A DNA stretch of 64,000 nucleotides from Escherichia coli (GCF_003334765.1 NZ_QOWT01000019.1); one strand, 5' to 3'; counted from the stretch's first letter, positions 57,387-57,848 are shown. Program-made: numbers and translations. Notes: generated by a model from the letters alone, not told the origin.

Positions 57387-57848
57387 GTCTGTATTTCCTT
57401 ATCCAAAGTATGGAGAAGTTAACATTATGTTTCACAACTTCATAGTGTCTGGAAGTATTATTTTTATGACAAAGGAAATACTTTGCGCAAATATTTTTTG
57501 TTTGATTACCAGCGAAACGTTTCTCTTATTTAAATAATTACCCACACAAAATATAGGCTTTTAATTATCAACCTTTATTATAAATAAAAGTTATGAAATA
57601 TATTCTCTTCGTTAACTTATAATTAAGAGAAAAAAACTCACCGCATGGCCATTTAAGCCAGGAATAAATTAGCTTCCCGTTCATCATTTTTGTGATCTTG
57701 CGCACATCTTTGAGATAACGCACTTTCTTCACCAGTACGTTGCACGCTTTGTCAGCAGAAGATTGCAACAATCTTTCAGAAGGCCGCGAATCCCCCGTTT
57801 TGTCGTGGTAATGTATGCACTTTGTGTTAGACGGGATAGGTTTTTAAG

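Follow-up and report, generated by a model that had tools for sequence, protein, structure and literature searches.

We find that the DNA between the divergent genes iraP and ddlA of Escherichia coli is best read as a composite regulatory region that remained after two genes were lost, and not as a gene itself; we put the probability of this reading at about 0.8. The spacer occupies positions 57387-57848 of the 64,000-nucleotide stretch that was analyzed (GCF_003334765.1, NZ_QOWT01000019.1), which we call the window. In most Enterobacteriaceae, a gene for an extensin-like protein and a gene for a major facilitator superfamily (MFS) transporter lie between ddlA and iraP. The Escherichia lineage would have lost both of these middle genes almost exactly at the boundaries of their open reading frames (ORFs), and this loss would have fused three old intergenic regions into one stretch of 462 bp, the most AT-rich part of which would be inherited from the DNA that once lay between the MFS gene and iraP, a region that is AT-rich in all genera examined. 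Taken as a whole, the spacer is ordinary, consisting of promoters, regulator sites, and H-NS on AT-rich DNA. Two features go beyond the published descriptions that we found: the probable origin of a stranded CRP promoter in the middle of the spacer, and a predicted RbsR-type operator upstream of iraP.

The limits of the spacer are set by the ATG of iraP at 57386 (minus strand) and the ATG of ddlA at 57849 (plus strand), in exact agreement with the coordinates and the 462-bp length in the original prediction, which had been made from the window alone. The G+C fraction (GC) of the spacer is 0.342, compared with 0.516 for the window, and it falls to a minimum of 0.26-0.29 (200-bp windows) at 57400-57700. 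A GC this low is reached by only 0.27% of the 462-bp windows in the 64 kb, and each of them overlaps the spacer, which bears out the claim of marked AT-richness; the AT-run TTATTATAAATAAAAGTTATGAAATATATTC that had been quoted in its support lies at 57575-57605. The spacer and its flanks are 100% identical to E. coli K-12 MG1655, relative to which the window is reversed. The remark that the spacer is long for a promoter region is true locally: among ten divergent gene pairs in 50 kb of identical K-12 sequence, the ddlA-iraP spacer is the longest, and the other nine span 92-351 bp. Of 5,426 E. coli genomes, 5,423 carry this region (95-100% identity), and the median copy number is one. The interpretation placed on this DNA fared less evenly than its description, in that nucleoid-protein binding agrees with published data for H-NS and the suggestions of curvature, a small protein, and a small RNA are not supported.

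The evidence for gene loss comes from a comparison of iraP loci from 80 species, which were selected with IraP and in which the neighboring genes were placed by tblastn. The full order ddlA, extensin-like gene, MFS gene, iraP is present in 46 of the 80 loci, including those of Citrobacter amalonaticus, C. sedlakii, Enterobacter, Lelliottia, Leclercia, and Kosakonia, with both middle genes on the iraP strand. Both middle genes are also present in two Salmonella loci, in which ddlA lies beyond the edge of the fetched DNA. The product of the first middle gene has 227 aa and a Pfam Extensin-like_C domain; that of the second is a 403-aa MFS transporter that scores 543 bits against the MdtG model, just below the 571-bit cut-off. 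Both genes are missing from all six Escherichia loci and from three Citrobacter loci, and the extensin-like gene alone is missing from Cedecea, Yokenella, and a few Enterobacter. C. amalonaticus S646 has kept the extensin-like gene, which is followed by the CRP block described below and then by a stub of the MFS N terminus (these loss patterns are found in loci L009-L012, L037, L044, L058, L061, L068-L070, and L074-L079 of our set). The extensin-like and MdtG-like genes have been lost repeatedly and independently across genera, and their presence in outgroups together with the recurrent partial losses makes a loss in the Escherichia lineage the parsimonious reading.

The length and composition of the spacer fit this history. 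The three intergenic regions of the 46 full loci have median lengths of 104, 169, and 232 bp, which sum to about 500 bp (range 262-542), compared with the 462 bp of E. coli, and the MFS-iraP intergenic region of these 46 species has a median GC of 0.36 in loci of GC 0.55. From these lengths and this composition we infer that the length and the AT-richness of the spacer were both inherited. The spacer would therefore be long because two genes were lost, a cause other than the one that had been proposed. By BLAST against the loci, the ddlA-proximal 72-82 bp match most other genera and the iraP-proximal 105-215 bp match Salmonella and Citrobacter; 57387-57603 aligns to the MFS-iraP intergenic DNA of Salmonella and Citrobacter koseri with 62-70% identity over 213-232 nt. 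BLAST matches to the middle of the spacer are limited to Escherichia and three Citrobacter species, and when local alignment is added, 57660-57710 is the only block of the middle that matches other genera. Apparent matches to the "MFS" ORF in the spacers of other species were rejected, as they arise only from an artificial N-terminal extension of the ORF over the promoter block.

The block at 57660-57710 contains a CRP site, TGTGA-tcttgc-GCACA (57691-57706), that is bound by CRP in vitro: CRP Footprint-seq gave a Kd of ~1.2 nM for a novel site assigned to "ddlA / iraP" (PMC12871828), and genomic SELEX (the systematic evolution of ligands through exponential enrichment) with CRP listed ddlA<>iraP as a predicted target (PMC3105977). 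On the minus strand, aimed toward iraP, the block consists of the CRP site and AAAATGATGAACGGGAAGCTAATTT, and we read it as what is probably left of the lost MdtG-like transporter gene's promoter. Local alignment pairs it with the extensin-like/MFS intergenic DNA of Salmonella, Citrobacter, Enterobacter, Lelliottia, and Pseudenterobacter (alignment A1), with scores of 15-21 in 7 of 12 species, compared with shuffle means of 9-10 (sd ~1.4); the other five species do not score above shuffles. The shared layout is a CRP site (TGTGA-N6-TCACA in other genera, TGTGC-N6-TCACA on the minus strand of E. coli) followed by AAATATGATGA..GGGAAGATAAAA(T/C). Of the 63 species in which the 5' end of the MFS gene is intact, 40 have a CRP-type site 127-131 nt upstream of its start codon; a 41st match, in locus L081, is only 50 nt upstream of the start and lacks the conserved block. 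The -10-like hexamer of the relic is TAATTT (57666-57671, minus strand); where the gene has been retained, its counterpart is GATAAAAT or GATAAAAC, the orthologous hexamers being TAAAAT or TAAAAC. Judged by the spacing to TAATTT, the center of the CRP site would fall near -40.5 to -42.5, which fits a class II CRP-dependent promoter.

The block has been kept in all three lineages that lost the transporter gene. Together these results suggest that the lost transporter's class-II-type promoter is stranded here, in the CRP site and the 35 bp that follow it, still constrained and aimed at iraP. This putative promoter resembles class II CRP-dependent promoters in its consensus-like site, its nanomolar affinity in vitro, and a -10-like hexamer at what would be class II spacing; it differs from them in that the gene it served is gone from Escherichia and in that the distances from the site to the predicted ddlA start (121 bp) and to the nearest iraP start (245 bp) are too great for standard CRP activation. 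In this respect the site can be likened to the orphan transcription-factor sites that persist after gene loss. The stranded promoter may have been kept by selection for CRP/FNR input into iraP. In chromatin immunoprecipitation (ChIP) experiments, FNR peaks were found at 400,328 and 400,344 (57668 and 57652 in the window), and iraP is repressed by FNR (Myers et al., 2013). The FNR peak lies on or beside the relic CRP site, which has only one good FNR-type half-site (ATCAC), and FNR may use this CRP-family site far from any mapped start.

Comparison within Escherichia shows which parts of the spacer are under constraint. We counted variable columns among seven Escherichia lineages, block by block. 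Beginning at ddlA, 16% of columns vary in the ddlA block (57750-57848), 64% in the next 39 bp (57711-57749), 24% in the CRP/promoter block (57660-57710), 79% in the next 34 bp (57626-57659), and 31% in a block at 57590-57625. In the 59 bp that follow, 51% vary; the palindrome block (17%), a 12-bp indel-prone patch (92%), and the iraP promoters and leader (20%) complete the spacer. The pattern is clear: short conserved motifs stand within freely drifting AT-rich DNA.

Several points weigh against the gene-loss reading. No coding remnants of the extensin-like or MFS genes were found in the E. coli spacer by tblastn with the Salmonella and Enterobacter proteins (best E 0.16), and the deletion is deduced from synteny and the relic promoter block rather than seen directly. 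The flanks of that block (57711-57749 and 57626-57659) match nothing and evolve fast. The p value of 2e-7 for the CRP block compared with its flanks (Fisher) is descriptive only, as the blocks were drawn after the alignment had been seen. The relic -10 hexamer TAATTT keeps three of six consensus positions, and Cappable-seq of cells grown in M9 glucose, in which CRP is inactive, detected no transcript from the relic promoter and, from 398,889 to 400,543 (U00096.2), no iraP-strand start.

The second new feature is a palindrome, CCAGCGAAACGTTTCTCTTA (57509-57528), which we predict to be an RbsR-type operator of the LacI family. In an alignment of iraP upstream regions from 16 genera (alignment A2), conservation is highest in AGAGAAACGTTTCGCT, which lies about 130 nt upstream of the ATG. 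We found AAACGTTTCG in the interval 100-140 nt upstream of the iraP ATG, at observed distances of 116-133 nt, in 59 of the 80 species (loci L014, L016, L026, and 56 others), and the 407 kb of these loci contain no other copy. Of the 20 positions of the palindrome, 17 agree with the K-12 rbsD operator TCAGCGAAACGTTTCGCTGA (read from the genome); the two sequences share a length of 20 bp, palindromic symmetry, and a central CG, and the half-site CAGCGAAAC is identical. They differ in the second half-site, which is imperfect upstream of iraP (GAGAAAC; GAAAAAC in other genera), and in position: the center of the iraP palindrome (57518.5) lies at -65.5 relative to the distal iraP start and at -109.5 relative to the proximal one, 65 nt upstream of a promoter and not over or downstream of it, so that simple repression is not the obvious outcome. 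By chance, 0.54 matches with no more than two mismatches to the 14-mer are expected per 64 kb, and the match to the rbsD operator is, taken alone, weak evidence. A point change from GAAACGTTTC to GAATCGATTC is proposed for reporter constructs.

The palindrome would thus be an operator for RbsR or a close LacI-family relative acting on iraP; PurR or another LacI relative may bind it instead. The Cra-type half-site consensus is GTTTCA. Cra itself was considered and rejected, as the conserved half-site GTTTCGC is of the RbsR type and not GTTTCA, and as iraP does not appear in the Cra ChIP-exo paper. A NagC site predicted in the literature by FITBAR (57533-57555, plus strand) is not supported by conservation, as the segment varies among Escherichia. 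That the palindrome is a working RbsR operator, through which ribose would set iraP transcription and hence RpoS stability across the Enterobacteriaceae, is a tentative proposal that we hold to be somewhat less probable than its opposite. Genomic SELEX with RbsR yielded only five peaks, and no link between RbsR and iraP was found in the searchable literature. A Salmonella study that selected for fast growth on succinate (Succ+) obtained mutants of both rbsR and iraP, and both had less RpoS protein; rpoS transcription was unchanged in the rbsR mutant, and the study left the mechanism open. A preprint describes another route, in which rbsD mRNA titrates DsrA. If RbsR activates iraP from the palindrome, the Salmonella rbsR phenotype follows, and if RbsR represses iraP, it does not.

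The two ends of the spacer carry the promoters of the flanking genes. The ddlA-proximal block (57750-57848, plus strand) is the counterpart of the ancestral intergenic region between ddlA and the extensin-like gene (median 104 bp), and its conservation across the Enterobacteriaceae extends to about 57777 (alignment A3; BLAST to more than 70 species). A sigma-70 ChIP-seq peak named "ddlA" lies at 400,216 of U00096.2, which is 57780 in the window (Myers et al., 2013), and a predicted extended -10 element, TGgTAATGT (57806-57814, plus strand), retains TG-n-TA...T in alignment A3. The ddlA start is expected near 57820; the tables of Kim et al. (2012) contain no ddlA start. The distal iraP start (57453, minus strand; Cappable-seq 400,543 of U00096.2, score 298) has a 67-nt leader and is preceded by a conserved ATAAAAATAATAC (alignment A2). 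The proximal start (57409, minus strand; Cappable-seq 400,587, score 168; also in Kim et al., 2012) has a 23-nt leader and an extended -10 element, TGtTAACTT, at 57424-57416, and a sigma-70 ChIP-seq peak named "iraP" was reported at 400,584 (Myers et al., 2013). A three-codon ORF, ATG AAG TTG TGA (57431-57442, minus strand), begins 11 nt into the distal leader; it is probably meaningless, and its ATG is missing in the Citrobacter and Salmonella sequences of alignment A2. According to a review, guanosine tetraphosphate (ppGpp) and DksA activate the iraP promoter (PMC10948607). We propose that ddlA would be transcribed rightward from a short conserved promoter and iraP leftward from two promoters that respond to ppGpp and DksA and lie no more than 70 nt from its ATG, and that the ~300 bp between these promoters would be H-NS-coated DNA with upstream inputs from CRP/FNR and the RbsR-type site.

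This is the locus of the E. coli iraP promoter described previously (Bougdour and Gottesman, 2007; Girard et al., 2018), and the starts at 57453 and 57409 with their conserved AT-rich -10/discriminator sequences lie in its iraP-proximal 110 bp; among the papers that could be searched, none describes the upstream palindrome or the origin of the other ~350 bp. In Salmonella, PhoP boxes lie upstream of iraP, and a further start, which depends on PhoP, gives a 218-nt leader (Tu et al., 2006; Zwir et al., 2012). The two species share homologous AT-rich DNA, a distal promoter with a long leader, PhoP-independent starts, and the RbsR-type palindrome. They differ in that the Salmonella DNA follows the MFS gene and does not reach ddlA, and in that the PhoP boxes are not recognizable in E. 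coli on inspection of alignment A2. The Escherichia block TTAATTATAAGTTAACGAAGAGAATATATTTCATAAC (57590-57625, minus strand), which is 89% identical between E. coli and E. albertii, lies at about the position of the PhoP-dependent Salmonella start.

The alternatives to a composite regulatory region are opposed by different parts of this evidence, beginning with those in which the spacer is itself expressed. The 67-aa ORF that the original prediction had noted was located at 57568-57771 on the minus strand. It corresponds to WP_001300163.1, a "hypothetical protein" in the annotation that the Prokaryotic Genome Annotation Pipeline (PGAP) gives to most of the ~5,400 complete E. coli genomes, and its frame is open in K-12-like strains, as a hidden small-protein gene would require. 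The curated K-12 record, however, lists nothing in the spacer, although small proteins such as YkiD are listed nearby, and the frame carries stops or a one-base deletion in all six non-E. coli lineages of the seven-lineage alignment, including E. albertii and E. whittamii, and is flagged by PGAP as a pseudogene in E. coli strains F11 ("internal stop") and 2012C-4221 ("frameshifted"). A search of 5.8 billion proteins returned 56 relatives, all from Escherichia or Shigella except one European Nucleotide Archive (ENA) sequence with 36% query cover; no fitting Pfam domain was found among the relatives, and no NCBIfam family matched. The one stretch of the product that is conserved, VRKITKMMNGKLIYS, falls on the CRP site and promoter block, and that block is also conserved at the DNA level in genera in which it does not code for protein. 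The ORF begins with TTG, no Shine-Dalgarno sequence is evident, and no Cappable-seq start lies upstream on its strand in M9 glucose. A real small protein is thus highly improbable; the ORF is almost certainly not a gene, and its annotation looks like an artefact propagated through a protein cluster. A short upstream ORF at the conserved ATGATG (57687) was likewise rejected, as its length and sequence differ by lineage and it would lie upstream of the predicted start, which assigns the motif to promoter DNA. An unannotated small RNA, or a long, regulated, structured iraP leader, is unlikely, if less so than a protein. The minus-strand RNA from 57660 to 57387 folds with z = -3.2 (1 of 200 shuffles as good), the relic CRP promoter is aimed toward iraP, and the Salmonella PhoP-dependent start has its 218-nt leader. 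Set against these are a plus-strand folding z of -0.8, a consensus fold (RNAalifold, seven Escherichia lineages) of -2.18 kcal/mol with a covariation term of +1.36, which gives no sign of conserved structure, and the Cappable-seq data, which place no iraP-strand start upstream of 400,543 in glucose-grown cells. Searches with Rfam 15 at E <= 10 returned only chance-level microRNA and long non-coding RNA matches, mostly over the iraP-phoA gap, the best with E >= 0.7 and far under gathering scores. A consensus scan found no terminator-like site in the spacer, and the scan as a whole was uninformative (3 promoter-like matches compared with 2.2 expected, 0 terminators, both mapped iraP starts missed). 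The segment just downstream of the predicted relic start is the fastest evolving, with 79% variable columns. We found no evidence that the spacer encodes a protein or a structured RNA, and neither the hidden small protein nor the hidden small RNA suggested for it was upheld.

The suggestion that nucleoid proteins bind the spacer is supported by published data: H-NS ChIP-chip (ChIP on microarrays) peaks at 399,764-401,878 (anaerobic) and 399,821-401,705 (aerobic) of U00096.2 cover the whole of it (PMC3688515, Table S3). FNR cross-linking at "ddlA/iraP" rises significantly, from 0.44 to 0.96, in an hns stpA double mutant. These ~2-kb peaks, centered on the locus in two conditions, the increase in FNR occupancy when hns and stpA are deleted, and the rank of the spacer as the most AT-rich part of the window would also be expected if its role were mainly architectural, with curved DNA nucleating H-NS or Fis and specific sites irrelevant. 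We regard this as unlikely. The number of A/T tracts of at least four bases (9) does not exceed that in composition-matched shuffles (7.3 ± 2.4), and AA/TT dinucleotides show no 10-11 bp periodicity relative to shuffles (|z| <= 1.3), so that the proposed intrinsic curvature finds no support in this crude test of A-tract count and phasing. Moreover, the block-wise conservation, with short invariant motifs (the CRP site, the palindrome, and the -10 regions) amid freely varying AT-rich DNA, points to specific sites rather than bulk composition. The GC of 0.26-0.29, the H-NS coverage, the IS1 insertions found in some strains, and a middle that BLAST matches only in Escherichia and three Citrobacter species could be taken to mean that the AT-rich core is horizontally acquired DNA, silenced by H-NS and unrelated to its neighbors. 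This is very improbable, however, because 57387-57603 aligns with the MFS-iraP region of Salmonella and C. koseri, a region with the same AT-richness in 46 species, the CRP block has been inherited vertically, and the spacer is present in nearly every E. coli genome. The ddlA-iraP region thus resembles other H-NS-bound intergenic regions of E. coli in its AT-rich DNA, its ChIP-chip peak in two conditions, and the masking of another regulator, and it differs from them in that its DNA is vertically inherited rather than foreign and lacks A-tract phasing. H-NS control of the anti-adaptors was reportedly described by Battesti and colleagues in 2012 for iraD and iraM rather than iraP.

Insertions of IS1 into the spacer (57387-57700) are found in some strains, for example L084 (NZ_CP117001.1) and L085 (NZ_CP119441.1). 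One IS1 copy directly adjoins the iraP start, and in an O121 strain IS1 copies occur together with loss of the 5' end of iraP. Many "partial" copies of the 67-aa ORF lie at the ends of draft contigs, which is consistent with frequent insertion of IS elements. The phoA gene (55610-57094), directly downstream of iraP, is patchy across genera; in Salmonella, E. cloacae, E. hormaechei, and several others, no phoA separates iraP from psiF.

These results would make the 67-aa ORF an annotation error across most complete E. coli genomes. The CRP site that two in vitro screens left between ddlA and iraP gains a probable origin, as part of the promoter of a gene that Escherichia lost, and the retention of the CRP block in three gene-loss lineages would offer a clean case of the fate of a promoter after its gene disappears. 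The palindrome upstream of iraP makes the question of how RbsR raises RpoS protein directly testable; if it proves to be an RbsR operator, it would provide a direct link from rbsR to RpoS, in addition to or in place of the proposed route by which rbsD mRNA acts as a sponge.

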